Shown here: positions 1,776 through 55,512 of the stretch, one piece after another
How the letters are laid out: every line of letters starts with the position of its first letter
Numbering within the stretch: position 1 is the stretch's first letter
Source: Clostridia bacterium
Lineage (GTDB): Bacteria; Bacillota; Clostridia; Oscillospirales; CAG-272
Direction of reading: 5' to 3'
Length of the DNA: 64,000 bases
NCBI GenBank assembly: GCA_017387685.1
Contig: JAFOEU010000055.1
Coordinates: 17,602-81,601 of the forward strand
Made by a program: the position numbers and the translations under genes
Notes under the pieces: model-generated
Databases searched by the model: none
Told to the model about the DNA's origin: nothing
The model's input: the letters and a program-made list of their open reading frames with translations, nothing else

Positions 1776-1950
1776 GGGGTGAAGGAGCGAAATCCTCCCG
1801 CTTGCGGGAGGATTTACTCCTTCCAAAACGGCGCCGAGGGCGGCGCCGCTTTGAAGCACGGAGAGTGTTTCGACCGCTGCGGCGGTCGACTTAAGGCTCC
1901 GCCTTAAGAAACCGCAAACTTTTAAAAAAGTTTGATCAAAACTTTCCGCT
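1776..1950 (+). repeat. ~170-nt multi-hairpin intergenic element, copy 1
   Basis: GGGGTGAAGGAG...CTCCTTCC, followed by stem-loops and ending CAAAACTTTCCGCT; homologs at 27725, 31636, 49659, 52943, 55352. Confidence 0.8.
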
Positions 1951-1973
1951 ACTGTTTTTTTAATAAAATCGAA

Positions 1974-2052
1974 AAAATCCCGCCGGATCCGGCGGGATTT
2001 TAACCTTCAACTATCAACTAGCAACTAGCAACTAGTAACTAGCAACTAATAA
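1974..2052 (+). repeat. hairpin + ACCTTCA + six CTAGYAA-like heptamers (probably also the mtlD terminator)
   Basis: aaaatcccgccggatccggcgggatttt, then ACCTTCA, then CTATCAA CTAGCAA CTAGCAA CTAGTAA CTAGCAA CTAATAA next to the mtlD stop. Confidence 0.8.
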
Positions 2053-2055
2053 TTA

Positions 2056-3270
2056 TTACTCCGCGTACTCATTAAGTGCCGCGATAAGCTCCGCAAAGCT
2101 TGCCTTCGCCGCGAGCATATCGTAAAATCTCTTAATAAGTGCTACGTCTGCCTCGTCGGTGATCTGCGAATACTTTGCAAGTGCTGCTGCTACGCCCTCG
2201 GTCTTTGCGCATGCGCTGACCTCTGCGCCTGCTTCGTCGCCTTCGCAGTCCCAAAGAAGTCCTGCAGCGATGCCGACAGCGAGGTATGCGGGGGTCTTTC
2301 CGCTTTCCTTAACGCAATTGAACGCGCCGACAAGTCTGTCGGAGGGGCTGAGCTTACGCTTGGTATCCTTACCTACGCGAAGGAGGGTATCCTCAAGCAG
2401 AGGATTGTCAAGGCGGGGAATAAGGTTATCAATAAAGGAAAGAAGTCCGTCAAGATCTGCGCCGTGACGCTTTGCAAGACCGCGTGCGGACTCGTCAAGC
2501 GCGCGGAGGAGGATATACTTGATCTCGGGGTCTCTGCCGACCTCGTAGATGTAGCTCAGACCCTTCTGATAGCCGAGGTACGCCATAGTCGCGTGGCCCA
2601 TATTATGAAGCATCAGCTTGCGCTCGATGTAGAAATCAAAGGGAGTAAAGGGAACAAGACCGTTCATATCGGGCGTGGGTGCGCCGACGGGACGGAATGC
2701 GGCGAGGTCTGCGGGAAGCTCGTTATAATAGTCGGTGCAGACCGCGAGGGGATTTTCGTCGGTGAATTTCTTGGGTGTGGGAGGAACGGTGATTCCTACA
2801 CAGCAGGAAACGAAGCCGATCTGCTCCTCGAAATACTCAACGAGATCCTCGGCAATATAGGGGCGGACGTAGCCGCGAAGGATCTTTTCGGAGCCGATAA
2901 GGTTTTCGCAAATGAGAATATTGAGGGGCTTCGCGCCTGCGGCATAACGCGCGGCGATACCCTTTGCAAGATTTTCGGCAACGTAGGGAAGGACGTTGAC
3001 ACCGAGAGAGGTTGCGAGAATGTCGCACTCTGCGATGAGCTTAACGACGCCGTCAACGTCGCGTCCGTTGAAGCCGGTGCAATTGCCGACCCATTCCTTG
3101 ACGTATTCGTTGCCGCGGGTAACGTAGACGGGATAACCGCCGTCCTTTTTGAGCTGTTCAACTACAGCCTCGTTGATGTCAACGAATGTCACGTCCCAGC
3201 CCGAAAGGGAAAAACGCTTACCGATAAAACCTCTGCCGATATTGCCGGCACCGTACATTATTGCTTTCAT
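2056..3270 (-). CDS. mtlD: mannitol-1-phosphate 5-dehydrogenase family protein
   Basis: MKAIMYGAGNIGRGFIG Rossmann start, CEN motif, ERKLxxxNxGHA, RVGKDTKRKLSPSDRL; AGGAG RBS before 3270. Confidence 0.8.
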   Translation of the reverse strand: MKAIMYGAGNIGRGFIGKRFSLSGWDVTFVDINEAVVEQLKKDGGYPVYVTRGNEYVKEWVGNCTGFNGRDVDGVVKLIAECDILATSLGVNVLPYVAENLAKGIAARYAAGAKPLNILICENLIGSEKILRGYVRPYIAEDLVEYFEEQIGFVSCCVGITVPPTPKKFTDENPLAVCTDYYNELPADLAAFRPVGAPTPDMNGLVPFTPFDFYIERKLMLHNMGHATMAYLGYQKGLSYIYEVGRDPEIKYILLRALDESARGLAKRHGADLDGLLSFIDNLIPRLDNPLLEDTLLRVGKDTKRKLSPSDRLVGAFNCVKESGKTPAYLAVGIAAGLLWDCEGDEAGAEVSACAKTEGVAAALAKYSQITDEADVALIKRFYDMLAAKASFAELIAALNEYAE

Positions 3271-3376
3271 TTTATATCTCCTTGAAGATTGAATACATAG
3301 ATAATTATATTTTAGCACTTTTTCGGTTGATTTGCAATACCTTTTTCAATATTAATCAAAAATTACGATGAAGGTA

Positions 3377-3408
3377 AAAAGTGCTGACCCTTGAAAGTCA
3401 GCACTTTT
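3377..3408 (-). terminator. intrinsic terminator after the M23 gene
   Basis: aaaagtgctgac-ccttgaaa-gtcagcactttt. Confidence 0.7.
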
Positions 3409-3410
3409 AA

Positions 3411-4238
3411 TTATTCTATTGGTAGTGTTTCTGCGGTTTTGGCAAGGGCTTCAAGCGCGGATTTGGAGAAATATTCGATCGGGTCAACGTCCGCACCGCC
3501 TACCTTCATTTCAAAGTGTAGGTGTGGTTCTTCTGCAAGCTCGAGGATGCCGCCCTCGCCGACTGCACCGATGAGGCACCCTTCGTCAACCTTCGCGCCG
3601 ACCTCGATTCCCTCGGCAAGGTCATCCGAGAGTCCGCGATAGATGCTGACGGCGTCGCCCGAATGCTCGATCCACACGCATTTGCCCCAAAGGGGATCAT
3701 CCGAAATCTGACTGATCTCGCCTCCCGCCGCCGCATAAACTGGTGCAGAGACGTTGGTCATAATGTCGATTCCGAGGTGGACTCGCCATTCACCGAGAGT
3801 GTTTGAAAAAACCTGAACGCTCGGATCGTGCTCCTTGCCGAGCTCACCCTCTGCGGGGAGCGAAAAAACGGGAATTTTTGCCGCGACGGATACGTCGGTA
3901 TCGTTGCCCGAGGGACGGGCGGTTTCTGCGGGAGGTGCGGTCTCAACGGGCTTAGGAGAGGCAGTTTCGGGCGCAGGCGATTGTGTGGTTGGCGTTTTTT
4001 GGATGGTTTCTGCATCAGTAACGTCACCCGGCTGTCCCTTTTTTGCTCTGTTTGCCGCAGAGGTCATTGCAACCGCGACAGCGAGAACGATCAAAAGTAC
4101 GGCAACGGTAAGATAGACCGTTCTGTTGACGCGCTCCGCGCTTTCATTTTTTTCGGTGGGGATCTTCTCACCCGCCACCTTGATCCTTGAAGTTTTTGGA
4201 ACTTTGATCTTTTTCGATCTTAAGGGATTGAATTTCAT
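3411..4238 (-). CDS. M23/LytM family membrane-anchored peptidase, SpoIIQ-like
   Basis: N-terminal TM helix, Pro/Thr-rich linker, HLGID and PHLHFE motifs; AAGGAG RBS at 4238; possible sigmaF-like GAATA-N14-GGCAAAAATA upstream. Confidence 0.75.
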   Translation of the reverse strand: MKFNPLRSKKIKVPKTSRIKVAGEKIPTEKNESAERVNRTVYLTVAVLLIVLAVAVAMTSAANRAKKGQPGDVTDAETIQKTPTTQSPAPETASPKPVETAPPAETARPSGNDTDVSVAAKIPVFSLPAEGELGKEHDPSVQVFSNTLGEWRVHLGIDIMTNVSAPVYAAAGGEISQISDDPLWGKCVWIEHSGDAVSIYRGLSDDLAEGIEVGAKVDEGCLIGAVGEGGILELAEEPHLHFEMKVGGADVDPIEYFSKSALEALAKTAETLPIE

Positions 4239-4378
4239 TTTTTGCTCCTTTTTGTTAGTTACATTACTATTTTTGCCTCGATAGATAAATTTATTCAAAA
4301 ATTTAATTTTTCTCTTGAAATAATCGAATTTGTGTGTTATTATTATAATGGAAATAATTTTGCAAGGGAGTGATATAA

Positions 4379-5164
4379 ATGGCACTGTTTGCCGTATCGG
4401 ATATTCACGGTTATTATGACGAAACAATAAAAGCACTTAGCGAGGCGGGATTTTTTGATTCCGATGAAAATAATCTGATAGTTGTCGGCGACGCGCTCGA
4501 CAGAGGCAGTCAGCCGAACGAAATGATCGATTTTCTGCTCGGACTTCACCACGATGGCAGGCTCATTTATATCTACGGCAACCACGAGGAGCTTTTTTAT
4601 GACTGCCTGCAGGAGATCGCCGCGGGCGGTATCGGAATGATTGCGAGCGGAATGTCGCATCATTATCACAACAGAACCTTTCACACCCTCGTTGCCATCA
4701 GCGGTATGAGCTTGAACGAGGCGCTTCTCTACCCCGAGGAGCTTGTTTCAAGAGTTAAGGAAAGCGATTATTACAAAATACTGCTCCCCGCTACGGTCGA
4801 TTATTATGAAACCGAAAAATATATCTTCTGTCACGGCTGGCTCCCGCTTGATATAGAGATCGAGGATAGAATAGCAAACTTCATCTACCGCCCCGATTGG
4901 CGCGAAGCGGACGAAACCGAATGGCACAAGGCTCGCTGGCGCAACGGAATGGAAATGTGCTGTATGCACGGCGTTCGTGAAGCGGGAAAGACCGTAGTTT
5001 GCGGACATTGGAACTGCTCCTGGGGACACGCGCACGTCGACGGAATTTGCTCCGAGCGCGGCAAGGATGCGATCACTACACCCTTTTATGCCGACGGCAT
5101 CATCGCGATCGACGCCTGCACGGCTCGGTGGGAAAAAGTAAACTGCATTAAAATTGAAATATAA
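4379..5164 (+). CDS. calcineurin-like metallophosphoesterase (Ser/Thr phosphatase-like)
   Basis: SDIHG, GDALDRG, GNHE, CHG and GHW motifs. Confidence 0.85.
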   Translation: MALFAVSDIHGYYDETIKALSEAGFFDSDENNLIVVGDALDRGSQPNEMIDFLLGLHHDGRLIYIYGNHEELFYDCLQEIAAGGIGMIASGMSHHYHNRTFHTLVAISGMSLNEALLYPEELVSRVKESDYYKILLPATVDYYETEKYIFCHGWLPLDIEIEDRIANFIYRPDWREADETEWHKARWRNGMEMCCMHGVREAGKTVVCGHWNCSWGHAHVDGICSERGKDAITTPFYADGIIAIDACTARWEKVNCIKIEI

Positions 5165-12802: not shown

Positions 12803-13927
12803 ATGAATACTAAGATCAAAAATATAGTCAACGTCATTGTTTTCTGTGTTGCCGTCTTCGGATTTGCTCTGCTTTGCCTCATTCTTCCGAAGCCCGAATT
12901 TCTCGACAGCGAGCGCCGTCCCGCCGCAGCCTTCCCCACTCTCAATATGGAGAGCATTATGAAGGACGGTCTTGAATACGGCGACAGCTTCATGAAGCAG
13001 TTTGACGATAAATACACCCCCGATAACTTCCCCTTCCGCGATTTCTTCCGTAATCTCAAGTCCTTTGTAAACACCTACGTTTTCAATAAGTCCGACAAGG
13101 ACGGCGTTTACGTTGTAGACGGTATTGCGGGCGAGATGCAGGAGCAGATCGATGAGGATTCGATCAAGCACGCGGCTGAAAAGCTGACCTTCATCTACGA
13201 GAAATACCTCAAAGATAAGGGAATCAAGCCCTATATGTCGATCATTCCCGACAAGGGCTACTTCCTATCCGAGGCGAACGGCTACCTTTCGATGGACTAT
13301 CAGGAATTCATCAAGCAGATGCTCTCGAACGTTGAATTTATGCAGTATATCGATATCACCGGCAAGCTTTCCGTTGAGGATTTCTACGCAAGTGACACAC
13401 ACTGGCGTCAGGAGCAGATCATCGACGTTGCAGAGACCCTTATCAACGGTATGGGCGGTAATTTCAACAGCACCTTCGAAAAGAAGGAGCTTGACGTTGA
13501 CTTCTACGGCGTATACGCAAGCCGCGCACCGAAGCCCCTTGATCCCGAAACCATCTACTACCTCACAAACGGCAACCTTGAAAACGTCAAGGTGACCGAC
13601 TGGGAGAACGGTGGCAAGGAGATCAGCCTCTACGATATGGAAAAGGCGCACGGCAAGGACGCATACGATATGTTCCTCTCGGGCGAGCTTTCGAAGGTAA
13701 CTATCGAGAACCCGAACGCAAAGACAGACCGTGAACTCGTCATCTTCCGTGATTCCTACGGCAGAAGCATCCTTCCCCTTATGGTTGAGGATTATGCGAA
13801 GATCACCGTCATCGATATCCGTTATCAGATCCCGCAGATCCTTCTGATGGGCGTTAACTTTGAGAATGCGGACGTGCTCTTCCTTTACAGCACTCTTATT
13901 CTTAATAATAGCTCTGAGCTGAAGTAA
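12803..13927 (+). CDS. DHHW family (AlgJ/PatB-like) O-acetyltransferase partner
   Basis: N-terminal TM, DNFPFRD, SDTHW, FRDSY; adjacent to MBOAT. Confidence 0.8.
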   Translation: MNTKIKNIVNVIVFCVAVFGFALLCLILPKPEFLDSERRPAAAFPTLNMESIMKDGLEYGDSFMKQFDDKYTPDNFPFRDFFRNLKSFVNTYVFNKSDKDGVYVVDGIAGEMQEQIDEDSIKHAAEKLTFIYEKYLKDKGIKPYMSIIPDKGYFLSEANGYLSMDYQEFIKQMLSNVEFMQYIDITGKLSVEDFYASDTHWRQEQIIDVAETLINGMGGNFNSTFEKKELDVDFYGVYASRAPKPLDPETIYYLTNGNLENVKVTDWENGGKEISLYDMEKAHGKDAYDMFLSGELSKVTIENPNAKTDRELVIFRDSYGRSILPLMVEDYAKITVIDIRYQIPQILLMGVNFENADVLFLYSTLILNNSSELK

Positions 13928-14110
13928 GTTATGATCTCGCTTCGCGAGAGTTATAATCCGCCTTTCAGGCGGAGTGATAATGTATTTGCCTTCGGCAAAT
14001 GTCGACTCTGACTTCTCGGCTTATGCCTCCATTTTCCTTCGGAAAACCGTCAGAGCCGCTCGCTTCGGCAAAATAAAGGTGAATTTCCGCCCCTCGGGGC
14101 GGAAATTTTC
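13928..14110 (-). repeat. leader + TTATCAC/mini-hairpin array pointing at the DHHW stop, interrupted by a ~65-nt repeat
   Basis: tctcgcttcgcgaga GTTATAA tccgcctttcaggcgga GTGATAA ... TAAAGGTG aatttccgcccctcggggcggaaatt; 14001-14062 recurs inverted at ~55519-55580. Confidence 0.75.
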
Positions 14111-14198: not shown

Positions 14199-14275
14199 GC
14201 GCCGTTAGCTCAGCCGGATAGAGTGTTTGGCTACGAACCAAAAGGCCGGGGGTTCGAGTCCCTCACGGCGCGCCA
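14199..14275 (+). tRNA. tRNA-Arg(ACG)
   Basis: Cloverleaf GCGCCGT...ACGGCGC-G-CCA; anticodon arm tttgg-ctACGaa-ccaaa; GGTTCGAG T loop. Confidence 0.95.
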
Positions 14276-14320
14276 CGAAAAAAGCACCGAAGCAAAGCTT
14301 CGGTGCTTTTTTCGTGCCAC
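14276..14320. terminator. bidirectional terminator after tRNA-Arg; duplicated at ~14477-14507
   Basis: cgaaaaaagcaccgaagc-aaa-gcttcggtgcttttttcg. Confidence 0.8.
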
Positions 14321-14507
14321 ACCGTTCGATAACTCGAACCCCGATGTGTTTTCGCTTGCGAAAACACATCACTGCTCGCGCTACCGCAGCACAAAATTAT
14401 CAAACCCAATAACGCGCGAGCTGGGGGTTCAGAGTCCCGGAGAAAATACCTTGCACCCAAACTTAGTTCGGGCGCTGCACCGAAGCAAAGCTTCGGTGCT
14501 TTTTTCG

Positions 14508-14584
14508 TGTCCCACCGTTCGATGCTCGAACCATAGACCTTCAGAGTCGGAGTCTGATGCGCTATCCGGCTGTTCCACGGGCAG
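14508..14584 (-). pseudogene. degenerate tRNA-Arg(CCG) copy
   Basis: 5' two-thirds nearly identical to 61241-61317 (anticodon arm identical); T stem and acceptor stem mispaired; ends ACA instead of CCA. Confidence 0.7.
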
Positions 14585-27724: not shown

Positions 27725-27903
27725 GGGGGTGACAGAGCGCACTACTTCCCTACATTCGGGAAGTAGTGACTCTGTCCAAAATCCCGAAGCAGAGCTTCGT
27801 GATTTTGAAGCGCGGAAGCGCGAGCTGAAGCTCGCGCATTAGTCCGAGGCTCTGCCTCGTGCTCCGCGAACTTTTGAAAAAGTTCGATCAAAACTTTCCC
27901 GCT
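27725..27903 (+). repeat. ~170-nt multi-hairpin element, divergent copy 2
   Basis: GGGGGTGACAGAG...CTCTGTCC and conserved ending; stems differ in sequence but still pair. Confidence 0.7.
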
Positions 27904-27926
27904 TTCTTCCTTTTTATAATAATAGA

Positions 27927-28045
27927 AAATTTTCGAGCGCAGCGAGAAAATTCACCTTCATTTTGCCGAAGGCAAATTATCACTCTCGCGTAAGCGAGAT
28001 TATCACTTCGCCGCAGGCGAATTATCACTCGCGCGAAGCGCGACA
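27927..28045 (+). repeat. leader + CACCTTCA + TTATCAC/mini-hairpin array upstream of the acyltransferase RBS
   Basis: tttgccGAAggcaaa TTATCAC tctcgcgtaagcgaga TTATCAC ttcgccGCAggcgaa TTATCAC tcgcgcGAAgcgcga. Confidence 0.85.
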
Positions 28046-28060
28046 AACCAAGGAGTCCCC

Positions 28061-29269
28061 ATGAAAAAGAAACAAAAAAAGATCGGCAAACCCCTCGCCC
28101 TCCTCTACCACCCCGCCTTCCTCCTCGTCTCCCTCTACTACCGCCTCCGCTACCGCGTACATATCGACAATTCCGACCTCGATCCCGAGGCGGGTGCGGC
28201 TATCGTTCTTGCCACGCACACCTCAAACAAGGATCACTTCCTCACCGCGATGGCTCTCTATCCCCGACGCGTGACCTTCGTTATGAGTCAGCATTTCTTC
28301 GAGAAGAAGGCTCTCCGTCCCATCCTCCGTCTGATGTGCGCGATCCCGAAGAAAATGTTTTGTCCCGATGCTTCGTCGGTGCTCTCAATGATCCGCGCCA
28401 TCCGAGAGGGCAACACTCTCGTTCTATTCCCCGAGGGCAGACTGACCTGCAACGGCAAGTCCTGTCCCATCACCCCCGGCACCGCCGACCTCGTTCGCAG
28501 ACTCGGAGTTCCTGTCTACACCATAACTGCCGAGGGCGCGGGCAAGACCTTCCCGAAATGGGCAAAAAAGCCGCGTATCGGCAGAATCGACGTCCGTCTT
28601 CGCAAGCTTTTCGCGGGTCCCGAGCTGAAAAATATGGAGCTCCCCGACGTTGAGCAAGCAATAGCAGATGCAATCGCTCACAACGCGTGGGAGTCGCTTC
28701 CGAATGTAAAATTCAGATCGCGCAAGCCCGCCGAGGGACTCGACACCATCCTCTGGCGCTGCCCCCGTTGCGGCGCGGAGCACACTCTCGTCTGCAAAAA
28801 GGACACCGTCACCTGCACCCATTGTCAGCTTGAGGCGCGCGTTGACGCGCACGGACAGATCTCGGGTGTCAAAGGCATCAAGACGGTTTACGACTGGTAT
28901 GAGCACAACGCCCGAACTCTCGATCTTAATTTTCCGCTTGAGTGCGCGTGCAGTGTCAGAATTGCGCCCATCGATCCCAAAAAGAAGCAAGAATTGAGGG
29001 AAAGGCGCAAAAACGGCGCGAAGATCACCAACACGGGCGAGGGCAAGTTCTCGCTTTCGCGCGAAGGCATCGTTTTTGACGGCATCGTAAACGGCATCGG
29101 CGACCATTTTTCGCTCCTCGGCAAGGACGTCCCCGGCGCGCTCCCGATAACCCCCGGCGACCACTTCGACGTCTACTCAGGCAATGTCCTCTACTTCATC
29201 ACCCCCGAGCCCGACTCCCGCGACGCAGTAAAATTCGTCGCATATATGGATAAAATGCACGGAAATTAA
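28061..29269 (+). CDS. PlsC-like lysophospholipid acyltransferase with Zn-ribbon extension
   Basis: THTSNKD (HxxxxD), LFPEG, CPRC...CTHC. Confidence 0.8.
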   Translation: MKKKQKKIGKPLALLYHPAFLLVSLYYRLRYRVHIDNSDLDPEAGAAIVLATHTSNKDHFLTAMALYPRRVTFVMSQHFFEKKALRPILRLMCAIPKKMFCPDASSVLSMIRAIREGNTLVLFPEGRLTCNGKSCPITPGTADLVRRLGVPVYTITAEGAGKTFPKWAKKPRIGRIDVRLRKLFAGPELKNMELPDVEQAIADAIAHNAWESLPNVKFRSRKPAEGLDTILWRCPRCGAEHTLVCKKDTVTCTHCQLEARVDAHGQISGVKGIKTVYDWYEHNARTLDLNFPLECACSVRIAPIDPKKKQELRERRKNGAKITNTGEGKFSLSREGIVFDGIVNGIGDHFSLLGKDVPGALPITPGDHFDVYSGNVLYFITPEPDSRDAVKFVAYMDKMHGN

Positions 29270-29400: not shown

Positions 29401-31641
29401 ATGAAAAAGACCGTTATCTGCATAATTCTTGCGCTTTTGATAGTGATTTGTACCGTTGCAGCAAGCTTTTTGGCGCGCCCAGACAGAGAACCAAAAACAA
29501 AAAACAAGCTCTTCTCCTATCTTGAAGAAAACATTACCGTTTATCTCGACAACGGACTTTTGCTTGCTCTCTCGGAGGACGGGAAATCCTATAATGTGTC
29601 GGGAATCGGCACCTGCACCGACGAGCACGTCGTAATTCCCGAAAAATACAACGGCAAACCTATAACGCGTATCAATAAGAACGTATTTTCTGAATTCAAC
29701 ACACTCAAAACGCTAAGCATTCCCGACTCGATAACGGGCGTGGGATCGGGGTTCCCGCGTGGCTTGAAATACAATGTCTACGGCGACATACGGTATCTCG
29801 GCAACGAGAAAAATCCATATCTCGTTGCGGTAGATGCCGAAGCGCAGAGAATATTTGAGCTTTCGTTCCACCCCGACACGCGAGTTATTGCAGACGAGGC
29901 ATTTTCTACGCGTCAGCTTCTGGAATCCGTTGCCCTGCCCTCAAAGCTTGAATATATCGGCGCGTCGGCTTTCTCGGGATGCAGCACCATCTCGGGGATA
30001 AAGTTTCCGCGTTCGCTCAAGATGATCGGTGAGGGTGCTTTCATGGGATGCAGGTCAATCACCTCGATCGATCTGCCCGAAGGACTCATGGAAGTAAAAC
30101 CGAGCGCATTCCGTACTTGCAGTAACCTGACGTCGGTCACGATCCCTGACAGTATCAGCGTGATCGAACCCGGAGTTTTCGAAACATGTATTGAGCTGAC
30201 AACTATAAAATTCGGTAAAAATGTCGAAAAAATCGAAAAAGATGCTTTTCGCGGCTGTACCTCCCTTTTGAGTCTGACCTTTCCCGATTCGGTGACCTCG
30301 ATAGACAGGTATGCATTTGCCGAGTGTCAAAATCTGATGTATGTCACTCTGCCCGAGGGGATTGTATATTTGCACGTGTATGCATTCTATAGATGTAAAT
30401 CGTTGAATTACAACCGCCACGGCACTGCCTCATACCTCGGAACCGCGAATTATCCGTATTACTATCTTATGAACTTTGCCAAGAACTCTCCAAACGCCGA
30501 GCTTGAGCTTCATCCCGATACAGAAGCGATAGCTTATGGACTTTTTGCCGACTCACACACTTACTCGATCAAGACCGATTCACAATCAAAGTATTATTAC
30601 GAGGTTAATAATTGTCTTATCGACAAAAGAGATAATACTCTCGTTTACGGTACCGATCTCTCCGCAATTCCCGACGGAGTGAAAAAGTTCGGCGACTATG
30701 CTTTTTTTCAGTGCAACTCGGAAGAGCTTGTTATTCCGGATTCGGTCGTCAGTATCGGAGATTACAGCTTTACAATGTGCTATAATCTTGTTTCAGCCGA
30801 CCTTGGCAACGTGACTGAGATCGGAGAGTATGCTTTCGGCAGTTGCGAGAAGCTTCAAACCGTACTTCACGGAAACAGGCTTGAGACGATCGGAGACTTC
30901 GCGTTTACGGACTGCGATTCGCTCGCATCGTTTGATTTTCCCGAGTCGCTGAAGTCGATCGGTGAAAATTCCTTCACTTTTAGCGGGCTGGAGGAGATAC
31001 ACATCCCCGCATCCGTCGAAGAGATACCGAGTCACGCCTTTCGCGAGTGTTTTGCCCTTCGAAAGGTTACACTTGACGGGGTGAAATATATCGGATATAT
31101 GGCTTTTTTGCGTTGCGAAAACCTTACCGAGATCGAACTTCCTGACACACTTTTGGTTATCGGAGAAAACGCATTTGGAAATTGCGCGATGTCGGAGGTT
31201 ACTCTGCCGCAGAATCTGCTTTGCATCGGGACATACGCTTTTGCAAATACGGTGAATCTTCCCGCAATTTCTCTTCCGAGGTCTCTCGTTTACATCGGTG
31301 AACAAGCTTTCTGTAAAAGCGGTCTGCGCTCGATTACCCTGCCCGACCGTATTGATACTCTTACTGCGAAAATGCTATATTACTGCGAATCGCTCGAAGA
31401 AGTAACTCTTCCCGCTTCGATCAAAAAGATGGATGAGGGTGCGCTCGCAGCCTGCCCGTCGCTGAAGCTCATCAATTTCGCGGGCAGCGGAGCAGATTGG
31501 GAAAATATCAAAAAGCACTCCCTTTGGCGAGCTTCCACCCCCGTCCTCACCGTAATCTGCTCCGACGGAAGTATTTCTCTTCCCGAAAACACGGATAAGA
31601 TATCAGATAAAAATTATATTCCAATATTTCCTTTAGGATGA
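29401..31641 (+). CDS. BspA/TpLRR leucine-rich repeat surface protein
   Basis: N-terminal signal/TM, many IGxxAFxxCxxL repeats; GGGAG RBS before 29401. Confidence 0.88.
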   Translation: MKKTVICIILALLIVICTVAASFLARPDREPKTKNKLFSYLEENITVYLDNGLLLALSEDGKSYNVSGIGTCTDEHVVIPEKYNGKPITRINKNVFSEFNTLKTLSIPDSITGVGSGFPRGLKYNVYGDIRYLGNEKNPYLVAVDAEAQRIFELSFHPDTRVIADEAFSTRQLLESVALPSKLEYIGASAFSGCSTISGIKFPRSLKMIGEGAFMGCRSITSIDLPEGLMEVKPSAFRTCSNLTSVTIPDSISVIEPGVFETCIELTTIKFGKNVEKIEKDAFRGCTSLLSLTFPDSVTSIDRYAFAECQNLMYVTLPEGIVYLHVYAFYRCKSLNYNRHGTASYLGTANYPYYYLMNFAKNSPNAELELHPDTEAIAYGLFADSHTYSIKTDSQSKYYYEVNNCLIDKRDNTLVYGTDLSAIPDGVKKFGDYAFFQCNSEELVIPDSVVSIGDYSFTMCYNLVSADLGNVTEIGEYAFGSCEKLQTVLHGNRLETIGDFAFTDCDSLASFDFPESLKSIGENSFTFSGLEEIHIPASVEEIPSHAFRECFALRKVTLDGVKYIGYMAFLRCENLTEIELPDTLLVIGENAFGNCAMSEVTLPQNLLCIGTYAFANTVNLPAISLPRSLVYIGEQAFCKSGLRSITLPDRIDTLTAKMLYYCESLEEVTLPASIKKMDEGALAACPSLKLINFAGSGADWENIKKHSLWRASTPVLTVICSDGSISLPENTDKISDKNYIPIFPLG

Positions 31642-31799
31642 AGGAGCGAAAATCTCCCCCGGGGGAGATTTTACCCCTTCCGAAACGTCGGCGGGACGCC
31701 GCCGTTTCGAAGCACGGGGAGTGTTTCGACCTCTGCGGAGGTCGACTTAAGGAACTTTTTGAGAAAAGTTCCTTAAGAATCCTCAAAAACTTTCCCGCT
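31636..31799 (+). repeat. ~170-nt multi-hairpin element, copy 3
   Basis: Homologous to 1776-1950; its TGA serves as the stop codon of the LRR gene. Confidence 0.8.
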
Positions 31800-31819
31800 A
31801 TTGTTTTATAATAAAATCG

Positions 31820-31942
31820 AAAATTTCCGAGCGCAGCGACGGAAATTCACCTTCAATTTGCCGCAGGCAAATACATTATCACTCTCGCGAAGCGAGATTA
31901 TCACTCTGCCGAAGGCAGATTATCACTCACGCGAAGCGTGAC
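31820..31942 (+). repeat. leader + CACCTTCA + TTATCAC/mini-hairpin array upstream of rarA
   Basis: Four GCA/GAA-loop hairpins separated by TTATCAC. Confidence 0.85.
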
Positions 31943-31967
31943 AGAATCATATATTTCGAGGCAAACA

Positions 31968-33200
31968 ATGAAACGAACTCCACTCGCAGAACTCATCCGA
32001 CCGACCTCCTTCGATGACATCGTCGGTCAAGCCCATCTCTTCGGCAAAAACGGCGTAGTCCGCCGCCTTTGCGATTCGGGTCGCATTCCGAATATGATAT
32101 TCTACGGTCCTCCCGGCACGGGCAAGACCACGGCGGCGTCGCTCGTTGCGAAATACGCCGATATGACCTTCGCGCGCCTGAACGCGACTACTGCGTCGCT
32201 TCAGGATGTCAAGGACGTCCTCGCCTCGACCGAAAGCGTCTTCGGTTCGGAGGGAATTCTTCTCTATCTCGACGAGATTCAATATTTCAACCGCAAGCAG
32301 CAGCAATCCCTGCTCGAATACATCGAGGACGGGCGCGTTACGCTGATCGCGTCGACCACCGAAAATCCGCACTTCTACCTCTACGGCGCGCTCATTTCGC
32401 GCTCGACTCTCTTTGAGTTCAAGCCCGTGCCGCCCGCAGAGGTCGTCCGCGCGCTCGGCAGAGGTATGGACTACCTCAACCGCGAAACCAACCGCTCGCG
32501 CACGTTTGATGCGGGAGTTGCCGAGAAGATCGCGTTTGCCTCGGGCGGTGACGTGCGCCGTGCGCTGACTCTTTTTGAAAACGCCTACCTCTCCTCCGAG
32601 GGTGACGCTCTTCTCCTCTCCGACGTCACACCCTTTGAGTCGAATATCACCGAATACTCGGACGATATCCACTTCGACCTCCTCTCCGCTCTGCAAAAGT
32701 CGATCCGAGGCTCCGATCCCGACGCGGCTGTCTTTTATCTCAACAAGCTCCTCGCGGCGGGCGAGCTTCTTGCCGTTTGCCGCCGTATGCAGGTTATCGC
32801 GAGCGAGGATATCGGTCTTGCCTACCCGATGGCACCCGTCATCGTCCGCGCTTGCTGTGAATCTGCGCGCGAGCTCGGTATGCCCGAGGCGAGAATTCCG
32901 CTCTCAAACGCCGCCGTAATGCTTGCGACCGCGCCGAAATCGAACTCCGCCTACCTTGCCGCCGCCGCGGCGAACGAGGATATCGAGGCGGGACGCGGCA
33001 AGATACCGCCGAAGCATATCCAATCCCCCCTCTTCGAGGGCTACGTCTACCCGCACGATTTCCCCAACCACTACACGCGTCAGCAGTACCTCCCCGACGA
33101 TCTGAAAAACCGCGTTTACTACAAATACGCCCCCAACAAAACCGAATCTGCCGCCGCGGCGTATGCAGACTCGATAGGTTCTCGTAAAAAAGGATCGTAA
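31968..33200 (+). CDS. rarA: replication-associated recombination protein A (AAA+ ATPase)
   Basis: PLAELIRP, GPPGTGKTT, LDEI, STTENP, GDVRRAL, SALQKSIRGSDPDAA, YPHDFP. Confidence 0.93.
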   Translation: MKRTPLAELIRPTSFDDIVGQAHLFGKNGVVRRLCDSGRIPNMIFYGPPGTGKTTAASLVAKYADMTFARLNATTASLQDVKDVLASTESVFGSEGILLYLDEIQYFNRKQQQSLLEYIEDGRVTLIASTTENPHFYLYGALISRSTLFEFKPVPPAEVVRALGRGMDYLNRETNRSRTFDAGVAEKIAFASGGDVRRALTLFENAYLSSEGDALLLSDVTPFESNITEYSDDIHFDLLSALQKSIRGSDPDAAVFYLNKLLAAGELLAVCRRMQVIASEDIGLAYPMAPVIVRACCESARELGMPEARIPLSNAAVMLATAPKSNSAYLAAAAANEDIEAGRGKIPPKHIQSPLFEGYVYPHDFPNHYTRQQYLPDDLKNRVYYKYAPNKTESAAAAYADSIGSRKKGS

Positions 33201-33207: not shown

Positions 33208-33889
33208 AGCGAGTGCGAACCCTCATCATTTGGGTAAAGTGATGAGTTTCTCCTACGGAGAAACGTGATGATTTGGCTTCGCCAAAGTGATGATTGCGCT
33301 TCGCGCAAGTGATGTTTCGTCCTTCGGACGAAGTTAAGGTAATTTTTCGCCGAGGCGAAAAATAATTTATTAAATGACAAGTGCGAACATAGCACACTTG
33401 GTGTCCCCTCATCACCCGCTGCGGCGGGAGCTTCTCCCAGGAGAAGCCTAGGGGGCAAGGCGGATGCCTTGCGTGAAATATTTCGCCTGCGGCGAAATGT
33501 GAAATTTTTGCTTCGCAAAAGTGAAATTCACGCTTCGCGTGAGTGAAATATTCCGCTAAAGCGGAATGTTAAGGAAGAAATTTGCCAAGGCAAATTTCAA
33601 ATTTTATAAAATCAATGTAGGCTGAACATAGAATTCGCAGTTCTAAACCTTAGGCTTCTCCTGGGAGAAGCTCCCGCCGCAGCGGGTGATGAGGGGACAC
33701 CAAGAAAGCTATGTTCGCACAAGCAATTTTTATTAAGATTGAAATTTACCTCGGCAAATTTCCACCTTAACTTCGCCCGAAGGGCGAAACATCACTTGCG
33801 CGAAGCGCAATCATCACTTTGGCGAAGCCAAATCATCACTTTTCTCCGCAGGAGAAAAACATCACTGATGATCTGTGTTCGCACTCGTT
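33208..33889. repeat. ~680-bp nested palindromic intergenic region
   Basis: Outer inverted CATCAC-linker arrays (33208-33363 / 33740-33889), inner ~70-bp REP-like inverted pair (33381-33450 / 33651-33720), central GTGAAAT-linker array (33472-33598). Confidence 0.85.
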
Positions 33890-36613: not shown

Positions 36614-36776
36614 TTTTAATACCGTTCTGCGGGAAAGTTTTCACAGCTTTCCCGCATTTTATTGCTTTTTGCGCGTTTTTGTGATATATTATATAATGTA
36701 CCGCGGTCATCCTGCATAAATTCACATCTTCCTTTTTGTGCAGAGTGACAAAAATAAAAATTATTCAAAAAAATGC

Positions 36777-49651: not shown

Positions 49652-49658
49652 TTTTTTA

Positions 49659-49822
49659 GGGTGAAGGAGCAAAAATCTCCCCGAGGGGAGATTTTACTCC
49701 TTCCGAACAGCCGACGGGGCGTCGTCTGTTCGAAGCACGGAGAGAATTTCGCGCTCTGCGGAGCGCGACTTAAGGAACTTTTTGAAAAAAGTTCCTTAAG
49801 AATCTTCAAAAACTTTCCCGCT
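49659..49822 (+). repeat. ~170-nt multi-hairpin element, copy 4
   Basis: Homologous to 1776-1950 and 31636-31799. Confidence 0.8.
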
Positions 49823-49844
49823 GATGTTATTTTTACTTTAATTC

Positions 49845-49988
49845 GAAAATTTTCGAGCAAAGCGAGAAAATTAACCTTCATTTTGCCGAAGGCAAATTAT
49901 CATTCGCGCGAAGCGCGATTATCACTCTGCCGCAGGCAGATTATCACTCTTGCGAAGCAAGATTATAACTCGCGCCCTCGGCGCGACA
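49845..49988 (+). repeat. leader + AACCTTCA + TTATCAC/mini-hairpin array upstream of the flavin reductase
   Basis: Five hairpins separated by TTATCA(C/T) or TTATAAC. Confidence 0.85.
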
Positions 49989-50002
49989 GCAAGGAGCTAA
50001 AT

Positions 50003-50587
50003 ATGTCCAAACAAGAATGGAAAGGCGGCGCTCTCCTCGCGCCTCTGCCCGCAGTTATAGTAACCTCCGCCCGTGAGGGCGAAAAGCCAAACGCGATCAC
50101 CATCGCGTGGTGCGGCATCATATCCACTCATCCCCCCGCACTTTATATTTCCGTGCGCCCCTCGCGCCATTCATACGAGATCATAAAGGAAACGGGCGAA
50201 TTTTGCGTCAATCTCGTTCCCGTTTCGCTCGTCCGCGCCGCCGACACCTGCGGTGTGCTGACGGGCAGAAAGGTCGATAAGTTCGAAAAATGCAAGCTCA
50301 CGCCCGAAAAATGCTTCAAGATCTCCGCGCCCGCCATCGCCGAGTCGCCGCTGACGCTCGAATGCAAGCTCCGCGAGATCATTCCGCAGGGCTCGCACGA
50401 TATGTTCATCGCCGACATAGTTGCCACAGGCGTTGACGAGTCGCTGATCGACGAGAAGGGAAGTCTGCACCTCGGCAGAGCGAATCTTTCCGCATTCGCG
50501 CACGGCGAATACTTCGAGCTCGGAAAAACCATCGGCTCGTTCGGATATTCGGTCAGGAAAAAGAAGAAGAAAAATACAAAGAGGTAA
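50003..50587 (+). CDS. flavin reductase family protein
   Basis: PLPAVIVT, NAITIAW, ISVRPSRHS, ESPLTLEC, GSHDMF; AAGGAG RBS. Confidence 0.88.
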   Translation: MSKQEWKGGALLAPLPAVIVTSAREGEKPNAITIAWCGIISTHPPALYISVRPSRHSYEIIKETGEFCVNLVPVSLVRAADTCGVLTGRKVDKFEKCKLTPEKCFKISAPAIAESPLTLECKLREIIPQGSHDMFIADIVATGVDESLIDEKGSLHLGRANLSAFAHGEYFELGKTIGSFGYSVRKKKKKNTKR

Positions 50588-52798: not shown

Positions 52799-52803
52799 CA
52801 TTG

Positions 52804-52835: not shown

Positions 52836-52942
52836 ATAGCAGAAGTAAGGTGAATTTTCGCCTTCGGCGAAAATTTTCAATAATATAATAAGTACGCTTG
52901 TCTTTTATGCAGTACAGAGTCGGCTTTTGCCGAAGGCAAATA

Positions 52943-53064
52943 CGTCGGCGGGGCGCCGCCGTTTTGAAGCGCAGGGGGTGCTTCGACCTCTGCGGAGGTC
53001 GACTTAAGGCTTCGCCTTAAGAATCCGCAAACTTTTGAAAAAGTTTGATCAAAACTTTTCCGCT
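52943..53064 (+). repeat. ~170-nt multi-hairpin element, 5'-truncated copy 5
   Basis: gtcggcggggcgccgccgttttgaagc...tcgacctctgcggaggtcga cttaaggcttcgccttaag...caaaacttttccgct. Confidence 0.75.
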
Positions 53065-53079
53065 GATGTTGTTTTTAAT

Positions 53080-53180
53080 TTAACTTCGCTTTCCGCGAAG
53101 CGGAAATTATCACTCGCTGTAAGGCGATTATCACTCTGCCGTAGGCAGATTATCACTCTCGCGCAAGCGAGAATATCACT
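53080..53180 (+). repeat. TTATCAC/mini-hairpin array running into the GH127 stop codon
   Basis: Four hairpins; the last ATATCAC contains the TCA stop complement at 53176-53178. Confidence 0.8.
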
Positions 53181-55035
53181 GCTCGCCCCGCGAGCACGGC
53201 AGCCATGCGGCAATCTCGCTTTCCCAGTCCTTACCTGCGGATTGGTAGTCGACGAGGTAGAACTTTTCACCGTTTTCGTCGGTGAATTCGAGTTTAAGGG
53301 TGTATTTTTCGTCCTCACAGATGCAGTAATCGTAGTTTTTGAAGCTATACTTACTATTTGCGTCCTTACCAAGCGAAGAATCGGCGGCGAGGGTGATAGG
53401 TCCGCGCGAGAGCGAGATGAAATTGTCGTCCTCATCGTAATGACGGACCGCGACGGGCGGCTTGCGCGTGCCGCAGGTGTTGATGTAGAGCACGTCAAGA
53501 TCCCATTTTTCCGGAAGCGTTTCGCGGATCGACATATCGAGGTCGAGTGCGATTTCGGTCGAGCCCGCTCCGACGTGATAGATCGCGTAGCCGTCCTTTT
53601 GCTTGATATTTTCATTCTGCGCCCACGCGGGAATGCGGAGCTTAAGGCAGAAATCGCATTCAGAGGTGATTTTAAGCAAAATCTTGCCGTCCGCGGGGTA
53701 TTTTGTTTCGGTTTTGATGGAAATTTTACCGCGCTCGGTGGTGATCTCCGACTCACCCTGCTCGTAGAAATTCAGGACAACACAGCCGTTATTATCAACC
53801 ACGGCGTGCTTGGCAAAGATTCCGACACCCGCCGCGCCGATGCAAACGCAGCATCCGTAATATCTTCCGTCCTCGAGGATCTGAAAACCGCCGACAGTGC
53901 GTCCTCGGCGTCCGGGGCGGAGCGGGGAATAGCTGTCGAAGGGGAGGGGGACGGGCACCATTTTGTCGAGCATATTGATCTTTGCGAATCGCTCGCGGAC
54001 GTAGCCGTCGCGGCTGACGAGCATTTTCTCATTGAGCGAGCCGAGGTAGGCGTTATAGAAGGAGTGCTCGATCGCGTCGGCGAAAACACTCTCGCCGGTC
54101 AGCATAAAGAGGCGCGAGCAGAACTTCATCCAGGTCACGGTCACGCAGGTCTCCTGCATAATGCCCTCGTAGAACTGCGTCTGTCGGGTCTTGGTGTGGT
54201 CGAAAAGCTCGTGCGTACAGCCCGAGGAGCCGATGACGGAAATTTCGCTGTCAAGAACAGCTTTTGCAAAGTTGACCACGGCTGTTTTGTACTTTTCGAT
54301 GCCCGTGACGTAGTAGAATTCAAGCAGTCCTTCAAAGCAGGACATCATCTCGTAAGCCTTCGCGACGCCGTACTGATAGGGGAGGAGCGTGTTTTCATAG
54401 GCGAGCTCAAAGACGTTGATCTCGCTGCCGCCCGATTCGACTATGTAGGCGGCGAAATCAAGATATTTCTGCGCGCCCGTCAGGTTGTAAAGACGTACCA
54501 TCGGCTCAAGGATCGAGGAAGAATTGAGACCGAGCCAATGCTTTGTAGCCTTGTTGATGTGAATTTTGCCTTCCTCTTTGCCGATGTGCGCGATTATGTA
54601 GTCGGCGGCACGGCTGATGGCGGCGATGATCTCGGATTTAAGCGCATCGTCGGAGCAGATATCGAGGTAGTATTCCAAGCCGAGGATAACGTATTTGCGG
54701 CACCAGAGATCCCACGCGCGAAATTCGGTGTCTTTTGTAAAGGAAGATATCCTGCCGTCGGGAGCGATGACGGAGATCATATCGCGAACGGTCTCGGTGA
54801 GGATGCAGAAAAGCTCCGCATCGCGGGAGTATTCGTAAACGAGGACAGCACCGCGCATCATCTTGCCCCAATATTCACCGCGCCAACCGTTGTTGACACC
54901 GTCAATGGGGCGGCGGAACTGATCGACGAAACGGCGCCACATATCACGGTCGGAGAGCTGATTTTTGGTAAGGAAATCGACAGCACGGGCGGTAAGACCC
55001 GAATATTTTTGTTTTAAGTTAAAATAATTCATCAT
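53176..55035 (-). CDS. GH127-like (beta-L-arabinofuranosidase family) glycoside hydrolase
   Basis: WRGEYWGK, KAYEMMSCFEGL, QETCVTVTWM, GCC, YP.DG.I, LRIPAW, RGPI.LA. Confidence 0.8.
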   Translation of the reverse strand: MMNYFNLKQKYSGLTARAVDFLTKNQLSDRDMWRRFVDQFRRPIDGVNNGWRGEYWGKMMRGAVLVYEYSRDAELFCILTETVRDMISVIAPDGRISSFTKDTEFRAWDLWCRKYVILGLEYYLDICSDDALKSEIIAAISRAADYIIAHIGKEEGKIHINKATKHWLGLNSSSILEPMVRLYNLTGAQKYLDFAAYIVESGGSEINVFELAYENTLLPYQYGVAKAYEMMSCFEGLLEFYYVTGIEKYKTAVVNFAKAVLDSEISVIGSSGCTHELFDHTKTRQTQFYEGIMQETCVTVTWMKFCSRLFMLTGESVFADAIEHSFYNAYLGSLNEKMLVSRDGYVRERFAKINMLDKMVPVPLPFDSYSPLRPGRRGRTVGGFQILEDGRYYGCCVCIGAAGVGIFAKHAVVDNNGCVVLNFYEQGESEITTERGKISIKTETKYPADGKILLKITSECDFCLKLRIPAWAQNENIKQKDGYAIYHVGAGSTEIALDLDMSIRETLPEKWDLDVLYINTCGTRKPPVAVRHYDEDDNFISLSRGPITLAADSSLGKDANSKYSFKNYDYCICEDEKYTLKLEFTDENGEKFYLVDYQSAGKDWESEIAAWLPCSRGEQ

Positions 55036-55157
55036 TTCGCCTCCAAAGGCTTTTTTATAATTATAACCTTTTTGAATTACGATGTCAACCCCACCGCACA
55101 AAAACAGCGGAAAAGTTTTGATCAAACTTTTTCAGAAAAGTATGCTTGCCTTCGCCC

Positions 55158-55296
55158 CGCGCCCGAAGGGCGCATGATGTTGCACTTCGTGCAAATGAAG
55201 TTGCCTGCGGCAAATGATGTTGTGCTTCGCACAAACGATGTTGCGCCCCGCGGGGGCGCAAATAAAGGAAAAAATCCGCCGCGGCGGATTTTTTTC
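55158..55296 (-). repeat. ATGATGT-linker mini-hairpin array with TAAAGG + leader hairpin
   Basis: gcgcccgaagggcgc ATGATG ttgcacttcgtgcaa ATGAAG ttgcctgcggcaa ATGATG ttgtgcttcgcacaa ... aaaaatccgccgcggcggattttt. Confidence 0.75.
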
Positions 55297-55351
55297 ATCT
55301 TAATTATATTTCGCCATTGGTTTTGTTTTGGTTGGATAATTTAATACATCA

Positions 55352-55512
55352 GGGGTGAAGGAGCGAAATCCTCCCGCGGGGGGGGGATTTACTCCTTCCA
55401 AAATGTCGGCGGGGCGCCGCCATTTTGAAGCGTGGGGGGAGTTTCGCGCTCTGCGGAGCGCGACTTAAGAAACTTTTTGAAAAAAGTTTCTTAAGGATCT
55501 TCAAAAACTTTC
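55352..55512 (+). repeat. ~170-nt multi-hairpin element, copy 6
   Basis: Shares TACATCAGGGGTGAAGGAGCGAAATCCTCCCGC with copy 1. Confidence 0.8.

Follow-up and report, generated by a model that had tools for sequence, protein, structure and literature searches.

A stem-loop element of about 170 nucleotides (nt) recurs six times in a 64,000-nt stretch of DNA from an uncultured gut Clostridia bacterium. This whole stretch, which we refer to as the window, comprises positions 17602-81601 of contig C48 of the host genome (G000), such that the C48 coordinate equals the window coordinate plus 17601. We conclude, with moderate confidence, that the element represents one class of module within a non-coding, clade-restricted family of interspersed stem-loop repeats, of the kind that includes BOX, Efa-1/YPAL, ERIC and REP/BIME; it looks like a new repeat family of a familiar bacterial kind and not like a new class of RNA gene. 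The element is placed among the interspersed stem-loop repeat families by its anatomy, its copy numbers, its taxonomic pattern and its positions at the ends of genes. Indeed, its copies are many and dispersed, share a common structure and are intergenic, which are the features that define such families according to Cozzuto et al. (2008). The element lacks the terminal inverted repeats of a miniature inverted-repeat transposable element (MITE), fails the tests for a REP/RAYT unit, a derivative of IS200/605, an Rfam family and a leader RNA, and is not in general a simple terminator.

A high-copy family of five-hairpin repeats

A preliminary description of the window, made from its letters alone, had reported six copies, all on the + strand, and one reversed 3' fragment, and we find all of these in place. 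The copies are read directly in the letters, were also recovered by repeat finding (families D2, D4, D5, D10, D12 and D13), and are matched by R1, a covariance model of the P1-P4 core (at C48 19377, 45327, 49236, 67259, 70519 and 72953); the mean column identity in an alignment of the six is 71%. The family is far larger than six, however. When five copies were used as query against the host genome (2.58 Mb in 116 contigs, 50% G+C, 85% complete), we obtained 71 merged BLAST places, among them 48 near-full-length copies, with more than 20 partial ones in addition, and R1 reports 60 places at E ≤ 0.01. Within the window, a 43-nt pattern covering the linker and P4 is matched three times (0.00 expected), and the 16-nt tail motif is matched six times compared to 0.11 expected by chance, although one of these matches, at 36628, is an unrelated terminator hairpin.

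The full unit measures 165-185 nt and consists of five successive local hairpins, P1/P2, P3, P4, P5 and P6, joined by short conserved linkers. There is no closing long-range helix and no multi-helix junction, and the structure is thus a row of local hairpins. The stems and linkers are as originally described, and the GAAGC that follows P3 is invariant in all 28 A-type copies. We distinguish two subfamilies, A and B, with identical hairpin order and identical linkers. The 28 A-type copies mostly have a P1 of GAAGGAG/CTCCTTC and, in 26 cases, a P4 loop of TGCG; the 18-19 B-type copies have a P1 of GACAGAG or GACTTAAC, a P2 loop of CTACAWTCG and a P4 loop of TGAA. The 3' end is interchangeable, with P5 and P6 either side by side or the P6-like palindrome nested in the P5 loop, and many B-type copies have both. 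Some copies carry extra hairpins inserted in the P3 or P4 loops, and partial or internally deleted copies are common.

The two ends of the element, GGGGTGAAGG... and ...AAAACTTTCCCGCT, do not form an inverted repeat. When head GGGGTGAAGGAG and tail AAAACTTTCCCGCT were read from the alignments for terminal inverted repeats, the two were not complementary, and every inverted repeat proved to be a local hairpin. A peptide-coding reading was considered for the open reading frame (ORF) at 49661..50587, which starts within copy 4, and was rejected because, from copy to copy, the lengths of the P2 and P3 loops differ by numbers that are not multiples of three.

Pairing is constrained and hairpins are exchanged as units

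The pairing described for the six copies extends to the family as a whole. In the 28 A-type cores, 96.1% of 1029 cells are standard pairs, compared to 78.2% with shuffled columns and 35-53% with slid partners. Double changes occur in 26 of 37 pairs and account for 159 cells, a number that none of 500 shuffles reached, compared to 43 after shuffling. RNAalifold, applied to two sets of 14 full-length copies, yielded 52 and 51 pairs with double changes in 32 and 23 of them. Similar results are obtained from the 18 B-type copies (42 pairs, 739 of 750 cells Watson-Crick) and from 93 copies of other species (3292 of 3441 cells Watson-Crick). The folding energy of copy 3 differs from that of shuffled sequences by a z of -5.95 for the + strand and of -6.90 for the - strand, and G-U pairs make up less than 1% of cells. 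The claim that the element is selected for its fold stands in part: complementarity is kept at 96-98% over about 140 copies, in two subfamilies with one architecture, as is a specific mismatch in P3 (below), and the constraint on hairpin formation is real.

The compensatory covariation noted earlier is likewise only partly what it seemed, since the pairing is real but reflects in part the exchange of whole hairpins between copies and not compensation pair by pair. In 21 copies from the related genome G002 that we compared with G000, the best G000 match was the copy at the same position in three cases, with a near tie in one more. Of the four positional pairs, two (L195 and L199) each differ by two single, compensated base pairs. 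Between L209 and C87_7461, by comparison, about 14 differences are confined to P3 and the next ~100 nt are identical, and between L193 and C48_67260 both P3 and P4 have been swapped. Much of the apparent covariation stems from the exchange of ready-made hairpin alleles among some 50 copies. Because whole hairpins are swapped and both strands fold, covariation statistics alone do not show a functional RNA, and the very strong covariation of this hairpin-swapping repeat is a caution for the discovery of RNA motifs.

In both subfamilies, P3 has a 1x1 mismatch whose position is fixed, and this mismatch is kept in 23 of 28 A-type copies of the host genome (C.T 12, T.C 11, with a G-C pair in the other 5), in 78 of 93 copies of other species (T.C 43, C.T 32, C.C 3) and in 17 of 18 B-type copies (C.T 11, A.A 5, T.C 1). 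Plain palindrome correction would erase this mismatch. The conserved mismatch and the conserved loops hint at a specific, putative partner.

The remaining imperfect pairs are distributed unequally. A.C cells outnumber G.T cells by 59 to 20 in the 93 copies of other species and by 8 to 2 in the B-type copies, and a hand count from the RNAalifold pair tables gave 20 and 10, respectively; the copies are related, so that these counts do not represent independent events. Since an A.C cell on the strand described here corresponds to a G-U on the opposite strand, the excess points, if anywhere, to the strand opposite to that of the preliminary description. The mismatch asymmetry, the terminator-like hairpin H1 that follows some copies and the Rfam orientation of Gut-1 (both below) all lean towards this opposite strand, and none of the three is decisive.

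Orthologous spacers differ in content between species and strains

The spacers that hold the element differ among related species. In the spacer that precedes the gene starting at 31968, the element is present in G000, G017 and G009 and absent in G002, G004 and G021 (three of six species), and hairpin H1 and its array persist in four of the six. The spacer at 49652-50002, which holds copy 4, has orthologous copies in G002, G004 and G021 that share a common P1/P2 stem with the host copy and have different P3, P4 and 3' modules. In G009, only the first ~15 and the last ~25 nt of the element are left in this spacer, joined at a short direct repeat, and in G017 there is no element, the spacer being occupied by two mirror-image units of H1 and array around an AT-rich centre. 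Two orthologous spacers, L185 (G004:C34) and L186 (G021:C29), have an extra ORF of about 250 codons between the upstream stop codon and the orthologue of copy 4, with the T-rich run before the element kept; such spacers seem to be sites of gene gain.

Of 30 copies in G002, seven have both flanks on one G000 contig; four of these sites hold pieces of the element in G000 and three hold none. At the three sites, the content of the spacer is wholly replaced, such that the boundary is unreadable and no duplication is seen, and at one of them a plain bidirectional terminator in G000 takes the place of the G002 element. Some orthologous copies are kept better than their flanks, which are at 80-90% identity. 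Differences are also found between strains: a joint 52867->53197 replaces 52868-53196 (329 nt, copy 5 and its array) with 58 other letters, and is carried by one contig in X4 (255 letters on the shorter side) and one contig in X6 (54 letters). Assemblies of strain runs break at other copies.

The element is essentially confined to one genus

Copy number within the genus is bimodal. Among 38 species, 13 carry 24-83 matches each at E ≤ 1e-10 and 25 carry none, so that a species has either no copy or at least 24. Matches were found in 11 of 41 sampled relatives, which in essence represent seven species of this genus (13-64 matches each), and 16 genomes from other families of the order gave 0 or 1 weak match each. 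Carrier genomes measure 2.1-2.9 Mb and non-carriers 1.5-2.4 Mb, in rounded sizes that are not corrected for completeness. An exact-pattern scan of public species genomes returned at least 117 stretches, and among the 80 matches listed all are metagenome-assembled genomes titled Clostridia, Eubacteriales or Acutalibacteraceae bacterium, several of them from goat, sheep or yak gut. Similarly, the sequencing runs that contain DNA of the window are animal gut and manure metagenomes. A clade of uncultured Clostridia from ruminant and pig gut has tens of copies per genome, many matches lie at contig ends where assemblies are broken, and knowledge of the family aids assembly, binning and annotation.

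Over the whole window, Rfam 15 gave only two tRNAs and one Gut-1 above the gathering threshold, none of them on the element, and a scan of 31500-32000 at E ≤ 10 gave no credible match on the element; the Rfam search proposed with the first description therefore identified no family. Collections of viral contigs, plasmids and phages held no match, which rules out an identity with known mobile DNA from these sources. Searches of the literature, in which words and not sequence were searched and which are weak evidence of absence, returned no description of the element; palindromic candidate RNAs have been noted in microbiomes (PMC8040213).

Copies often lie at gene ends, in either orientation

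Forty-three of the 48 copies lie outside every crude ORF call, and the other five overlap long ORF calls, which are unconfirmed. Forty copies have both neighbours called, and these comprise 13 convergent, 24 tandem and three divergent arrangements. From all spacers we expected 6.7, 26.6 and 6.7, respectively (P = 0.016), and from spacers of at least 100 nt we expected 6.8, 22.3 and 11.0 (chi-square P = 0.003). The tail is within 25 nt of the stop codon of a convergent gene in 14 of 30 copies, and the head is within 25 nt of a co-oriented upstream stop codon in 7 of 23. The downstream gene has the orientation of the element in 16 of 46 cases, as does the upstream gene in 23 of 42; the consistent position upstream of a co-oriented gene that characterises a cis-regulatory 5' leader or riboswitch is thus not observed.

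The uniform + orientation noted in the window does not extend beyond it, as four copies on C48 itself are on the - strand (at 70, 3088, 14750 and 91165). A bias relative to replication, for which a test had been proposed, is also not found: among the 48 copies, orientation follows the sign of the GC skew in 29 and the local gene-strand bias in 20, and we therefore consider the pattern local to the window. The genes of the host genome themselves do not track GC skew (960 of 1909). A different regularity appears where two copies meet. In other species, 13 of 80 loci hold two matches, and all 13 are ordered - then +, with the 5' ends facing and the heads mostly 20-55 nt apart. The host genome has three such head-to-head pairs, one of which exactly fills the spacer from a stop codon to the ribosome-binding site of the next gene; from their end and start residues, the flanking genes are putatively argG and argH.

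Partner genes, promoters and terminators

The preliminary description had proposed a search for longer copies with a transposase or nuclease gene, and we detect none. Y1_Tnp (PF01797) has no match in the host genome, which is 85% complete, nor in the carriers G047 (94% complete, 83 copies) and G048. Of five carriers compared for a Y1 gene, G004 and G045 have one, G043 gives a match just at the cut-off, and G047 and G048 have none. The Y1 gene of G004 was considered as a partner and rejected, since it is part of an ordinary unit of the IS200 type, the flanks of which are unrelated and which has no R1 match nearby. The TnpB domain (PF07282) likewise has no match in the host genome, where IscB was not searched for. 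Partners of the RAYT, IS200 and TnpB types were rejected on the missing PF01797 (G000, G047 and G048) and PF07282 (G000) and on the unrelated flanks of the G004 unit. We also found no paralogous gene family enriched within 3 kb of the elements in the host genome.

We found no sigma-70-like promoter at either end of the element, nor any such match on the + strand in the tail and the AT-rich stretch. The only promoter-like matches in the tail region, GTGATA-18-GATAAT on the - strand of the arrays, are a by-product of the 22-nt array period, and the flank that is conserved at the head of some copies yielded no promoter match in one scan and a weak 9/12 match in another. The reversed fragment with P6 and tail, by comparison, lies ~16 nt upstream of the perfect TTGACA-17-TATAAT promoter (12/12; 55060-55088, - strand) of a - strand gene. 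By the criteria of the scanning tool, a terminator-like hairpin with a T-run occurs within 21 of 48 copies on the + strand and within 15 of 48 on the - strand, and canonical terminators adjoin copies 1 and 6. Contigs from RNA libraries join the element to its flanks (with loose ends at 49816 and 49843), which is weak evidence of transcription since DNA carry-over is not excluded; these runs are assembled contigs, and show neither transcription, strand nor ends.

Origin and role of the element

If the element is an interspersed stem-loop repeat, the family would have expanded once, in one sub-clade of the genus, and its copies would now be kept and reshuffled mainly by recombination and gene conversion through the homology of the conserved linkers, and not by a dedicated transposase. 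What matters would be the individual hairpins, forming in single-stranded nucleic acid, and the most likely setting may be co-transcription within a 3' untranslated region (UTR), an intercistronic region or a 5' UTR, where a block of stable structure would protect transcripts or insulate adjoining transcription units. The strand more tolerant of wobble pairs would be the reverse complement of the strand described here. Several observations weigh against this explanation. The TGCG loop of P4, the GGG loops of P3, the linkers and the P3 mismatch exceed what generic hairpins need, which suggests a specific binding partner. An all-or-none distribution at 24-83 copies is what we would expect of an active mobilising function, and gene conversion explains the reshuffling of copies but not their original spread. 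Terminator features in only 21 and 15 of 48 copies mean that a simple terminator role is not general, the RNA:DNA depth ratio over the elements is like that of the flanking genes, and the context statistics rest on crude longest-ORF gene calls.

The alternatives are best weighed against the same observations. One part of the initial proposal was a mobile element, and the support for mobility is indirect: copy number is high, distribution is all-or-none, occupancy differs at orthologous sites, and a strain joint spans copy 5, but terminal repeats, target duplications, clean empty sites and a partner gene were not found. We consider it unlikely that the element is a non-autonomous one moved as single-stranded DNA by a hairpin-recognising enzyme, whether of the REP/RAYT type, of the type of IS200/IS605 and PATE, or another HUH or other enzyme. 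Such an enzyme would recognise, on one of the two strands, the conserved loops, the linkers and the mismatch of P3, and this would account for variable stems with fixed loops and a fixed 1x1 mismatch, for an element without terminal inverted repeats, for the clade-restricted distribution and copy number, and for the strand asymmetry of A.C and G.T mismatches. It would also fit the array hairpins, of which 83 of 97 units have, on one strand, a GAA, GCA or GNRA loop with a closing C-G pair and which resemble the very stable d(GCGAAGC) DNA mini-hairpin. Nevertheless, PF01797 was not found in G000, G047 or G048, PF07282 was not found in G000, no gene family is enriched near the copies, and the sole IS200-type gene of G004 has unrelated flanks and lies near no element. 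Moreover, copies abut stop codons in both orientations with no common target word at the compared sites, no clean boundary of insertion or excision is seen at the three non-shared sites, and orientation has no link to GC skew. We give a similarly small chance, if marginally less small, to a bolder proposal in which the element is the substrate of a new system of propagation or recognition. In this proposal, a predicted protein found only in carriers would read the loops, linkers and P3 mismatch on a five-hairpin RNA or on single-stranded DNA of the opposite strand, and would carry the element to the ends of genes by a process that involves neither terminal repeats nor target duplications; copies would trade hairpins as cassettes, and the element, H1 and the Gut-1 or heptamer arrays would jointly form mirror-symmetric intergenic units that set transcript boundaries on both sides. 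If the mismatch and loops do mark a binding partner, a comparison of the 13 carriers with the 25 non-carriers could reveal a new mobilisation or RNA-binding system.

The other part of the initial proposal, a structured non-coding RNA, is not demonstrated, and we regard structured RNAs in their own right, either multi-copy small RNA genes or a protein-bound cis-regulatory leader or 3' UTR element, as less probable than single-stranded DNA mobility. Strong covariation, an architecture conserved over two diverged subfamilies, a P4 c(UGCG)g loop on the + strand in 26 of 28 copies and a folding energy well below that of shuffled sequences (z about -6 to -7) would all be expected of such RNAs, as would the presence of the element in RNA-library contigs and the better conservation of some orthologous copies than of their flanks. 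Typical functional RNAs have far more G-U pairs than the <1% of cells found here, and the absence of a closing helix and multi-helix junction, the equal folding of both strands and the frequency of partial and internally deleted copies also argue against an RNA function. No Rfam family matches the element, no sigma-70-like promoter is found at its head or tail even though a perfect consensus promoter lies nearby, its orientation relative to genes is inconsistent both downstream and upstream, head-to-head pairs occur within operon-like spacers, and the neighbouring genes, judged from their first residues only, are functionally unrelated. Very rare wobble pairs and symmetrical folding are instead what we would expect of functionless DNA palindromes, in which intrastrand template switching and gene conversion keep the pairing and covariation is a mutational by-product; any role would lie at the level of double-stranded DNA, such as the sites for nucleoid proteins or gyrase in BIMEs. 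Stems that are almost wholly Watson-Crick with very few wobble intermediates, elements in either orientation relative to genes, whole-hairpin swaps between orthologues and loss by microhomology deletion in one species agree with this explanation. It is the least probable of those considered here, since 84-94% of copies, across both subfamilies, still have the pyrimidine-pyrimidine (or A.A) mismatch of P3 and since the loops and linkers have also been conserved. In addition, some copies have been retained at orthologous sites despite the divergence of their flanks, and unequal A.C and G.T mismatches are not expected of a strand-symmetric process.

Comparison with known repeat families

BOX elements resemble the element in being modular, non-coding intergenic repeats of ~100-200 nt whose modules vary, which carry no gene and number from tens to hundreds, and in the stable stem-loops predicted on co-transcription. 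No sequence relation to BOX is expected. Compared by description only, the element has five separate local hairpins whereas the end modules of BOX pair, and it differs further in its two subfamilies, its strictly head-to-head neighbours, its linked hairpin and heptamer arrays and its host among uncultured gut Clostridia. MITEs such as ERIC, Correia/NEMIS and RUP are likewise short, intergenic and non-autonomous, form hairpins as RNA and can influence the termination of neighbouring transcripts or their stability. MITEs are defined by terminal inverted repeats and target duplications, and the ends of the element are not inverted repeats. The REP unit is a single palindrome of ~20-40 nt, whereas the unit of the element is 165-185 nt with five distinct hairpins, and no RAYT/Y1 is found in G000, G047 or G048.

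The closest parallels in size come from the interspersed stem-loop repeat families of which part of Cozzuto et al. (PMC2267715) gives an account and which include the BOX elements of Streptococcus pneumoniae, PU-BIME and ERIC. There, the model of Efa-1 from Enterococcus faecalis measures 163 nt with 65 hits and that of YPAL from Yersinia pestis 168 nt with 101 hits; like the element, both are intergenic, have a similar copy number and a common predicted structure, and can fold on both strands. Compared by description, Efa-1 has two adjacent stem-loops and the element five, and the exchange of hairpin cassettes and a conserved internal mismatch are not among the features reported for Efa-1 or YPAL in this part of the paper. 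The same source records that ERIC can affect the stability or termination of adjoining transcripts in yersiniae. With REP/BIME, as set out in the portion of PMC2817692 that we draw on, the element shares extragenic palindromes, mosaic arrays, alternating orientation, positions at gene 3' ends and in operon spacers, and pairing that is kept while sequence varies.

Downstream arrays and their relation to Gut-1

The preliminary account of the arrays that follow the window copies is accurate: 22-nt hairpin arrays come after copies 2-5, copy 1 precedes a terminator-like hairpin and then a CAACTAG heptamer array, and copy 6 has no array (Table 1). In the host genome, 14 of 48 copies have an AT-rich stretch, the hairpin H1 (GAAAATTTCCGAGC...), ACCTTCA and a tandem array downstream of the tail, and in six of 48, two or more of the 22-nt hairpin units follow within 300 nt. 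Each 22-nt unit comprises a heptamer (ATTATCA) and a 15-nt hairpin. The stems of the units are Watson-Crick in 566 of 571 cells, and the loops are mostly GAA, GCA or GNRA on the ATTATCAC strand. On the reverse strand, H1 and its T-rich flank resemble an intrinsic terminator, and at copy 1 a canonical terminator replaces H1.

Other copies are followed by plain heptamer arrays (CAACTAG, CCTCTGC, TTTTGCA or CCACTGA). These plain arrays, including the variants TAACTAG and CCACTGT, follow the H1-ACCTTCA module, which at other places stands before hairpin arrays; they are found at 2003-2050 of the window and in the downstream flanks at C35:26477, C37:19168, C47:40842, C48:14960 and C55:40030 of the host genome, and run to the stop codon of the convergent gene in the cases seen. 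In the CAACTAG array, a UAG recurs every 7 nt on either strand.

On their opposite strand, the 22-nt hairpin arrays correspond to the Rfam motif Gut-1 (RF01706), which requires three tandem hairpins, spacers like UGAAAU or GUGAUAAU and at least 50 bits. Gut-1 is presented by Weinberg et al. (2010, PMC2864571), in the part of the paper used here, as a likely non-coding RNA from the human gut only, with no stated function. The likeness between the two consists of the arrays 3' of copies 2-5 and of a gut habitat, but Gut-1 is the array and not the 170-nt element, which has no match to it. The array at 33471-33554 (54.8 bits compared to a gathering score of 50) is the sole array of the window above threshold, and those adjoining elements are below it (for example 26.9 and 32.9 bits), the first of these being the match at 31871-31952 on the - strand of the copy-3 array. 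Gut-1 is also more widespread, with matches in 28 of the 41 related genomes and nine of 17 genera and up to 73 matches per genome; the element occurs in 11 of the 41 and essentially in one genus. This orphan Rfam family thus gains a genomic context, as high-copy intergenic modules that are often mirror-symmetric around an AT-rich centre.

Arrays of the Gut-1 type also occur independently of the element, in both orientations, at 13911-13976, 33237-33320, 33471-33554, 33784-33867, 57671-57780 and 58599-58692. A long inverted repeat, GTGCGAACA...GGTGATGAGGGGACACC...TGTTCGCAC (family D9, 85% identical), is found at 33380-33730 and 59190-59270, and its arms at the first of these places enclose a Gut-1 array. 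Mirror-symmetric units, in which a reversed array and reversed H1, an AT-rich centre, and a forward H1 and forward array follow one another, stand between co-directional genes and without the 170-nt element at L183 (G017:C13) and at C97:42900-43170 of the host genome.

Table 1. Copies of the element in the window and the modules beside them (window coordinates)
Feature	Position	Strand	Remarks
Copy 1, A-type	1776..1955	+	R1 125.6 bits (C48:19377-19496); row of alignments A2 and A4; order P1/P2, P3, purine-rich linker, P4, P5 and P6 side by side, tail AAAACTTTCCGCT
Module 3' of copy 1	1974..2050	+	Hairpin, ACCTTCA, CAACTAG/TAACTAG heptamer array up to the stop codon of the convergent gene
Hairpin 1974-2001 beside copy 1	2001..1974	-	Reads as an intrinsic terminator on the - strand
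Copy 2, B-type	27725..27903	+	R1 72.4 bits; row of the B-type alignment; P1 GACAGAG/CTCTGTC, P2 loop CTACATTCG, P4 loop TGAA
Module 3' of copy 2	27925..28048	+	H1 (GAAAATTTTCGAGC...), ACCTTCA, H2, three 22-nt units (heptamer ATTATCA and 15-nt hairpin); families D1, D7; array stops just before a ribosome-binding site and the ATG at 28061
Copy 3, A-type	31636..31799	+	R1 125.6 bits; long 3' module, P6-like palindrome nested within P5
Module 3' of copy 3	31819..31946	+	H1, ACCTTCA, H2, 22-nt hairpin array; upstream of the gene starting at 31968
Copy 4, A-type	49659..49822	+	R1 130.4 bits; long 3' module; begins 8 nt past the stop codon of the upstream gene
Module 3' of copy 4	49845..49989	+	H1, ACCTTCA, H2, 22-nt hairpin array; upstream of the ATG at 50003; families D1, D7
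Copy 5, partial	52943..53064	+	R1 71.7 bits; P3 to tail, without P1/P2; family D4, 89% identity to copy 1
22-nt hairpin array 3' of copy 5	53100..53195	+	Repeat family D1
Reversed fragment with P6 and tail	55105..55141	-	Tail-motif match 55106-55121
Copy 6, A-type	55352..55512	+	R1 134.7 bits; long 3' module; tail diverged; no array after it

Further repeats in the window

Between the reversed fragment and copy 6, positions 55150-55262 hold a different hairpin array, whose spacers are of the type (A)ATGATGTTG and not ATTATCAC, followed by a canonical bidirectional terminator at 55267-55296. The window also contains two tRNA genes, at 14199-14272 (+) and 61244-61317 (-), with 3' parts that are 92% identical (family D8). 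Near the first of these, a 47-nt terminator-like repeat is duplicated 193 nt apart, at 14284-14330 and 14477-14523 (family D11).

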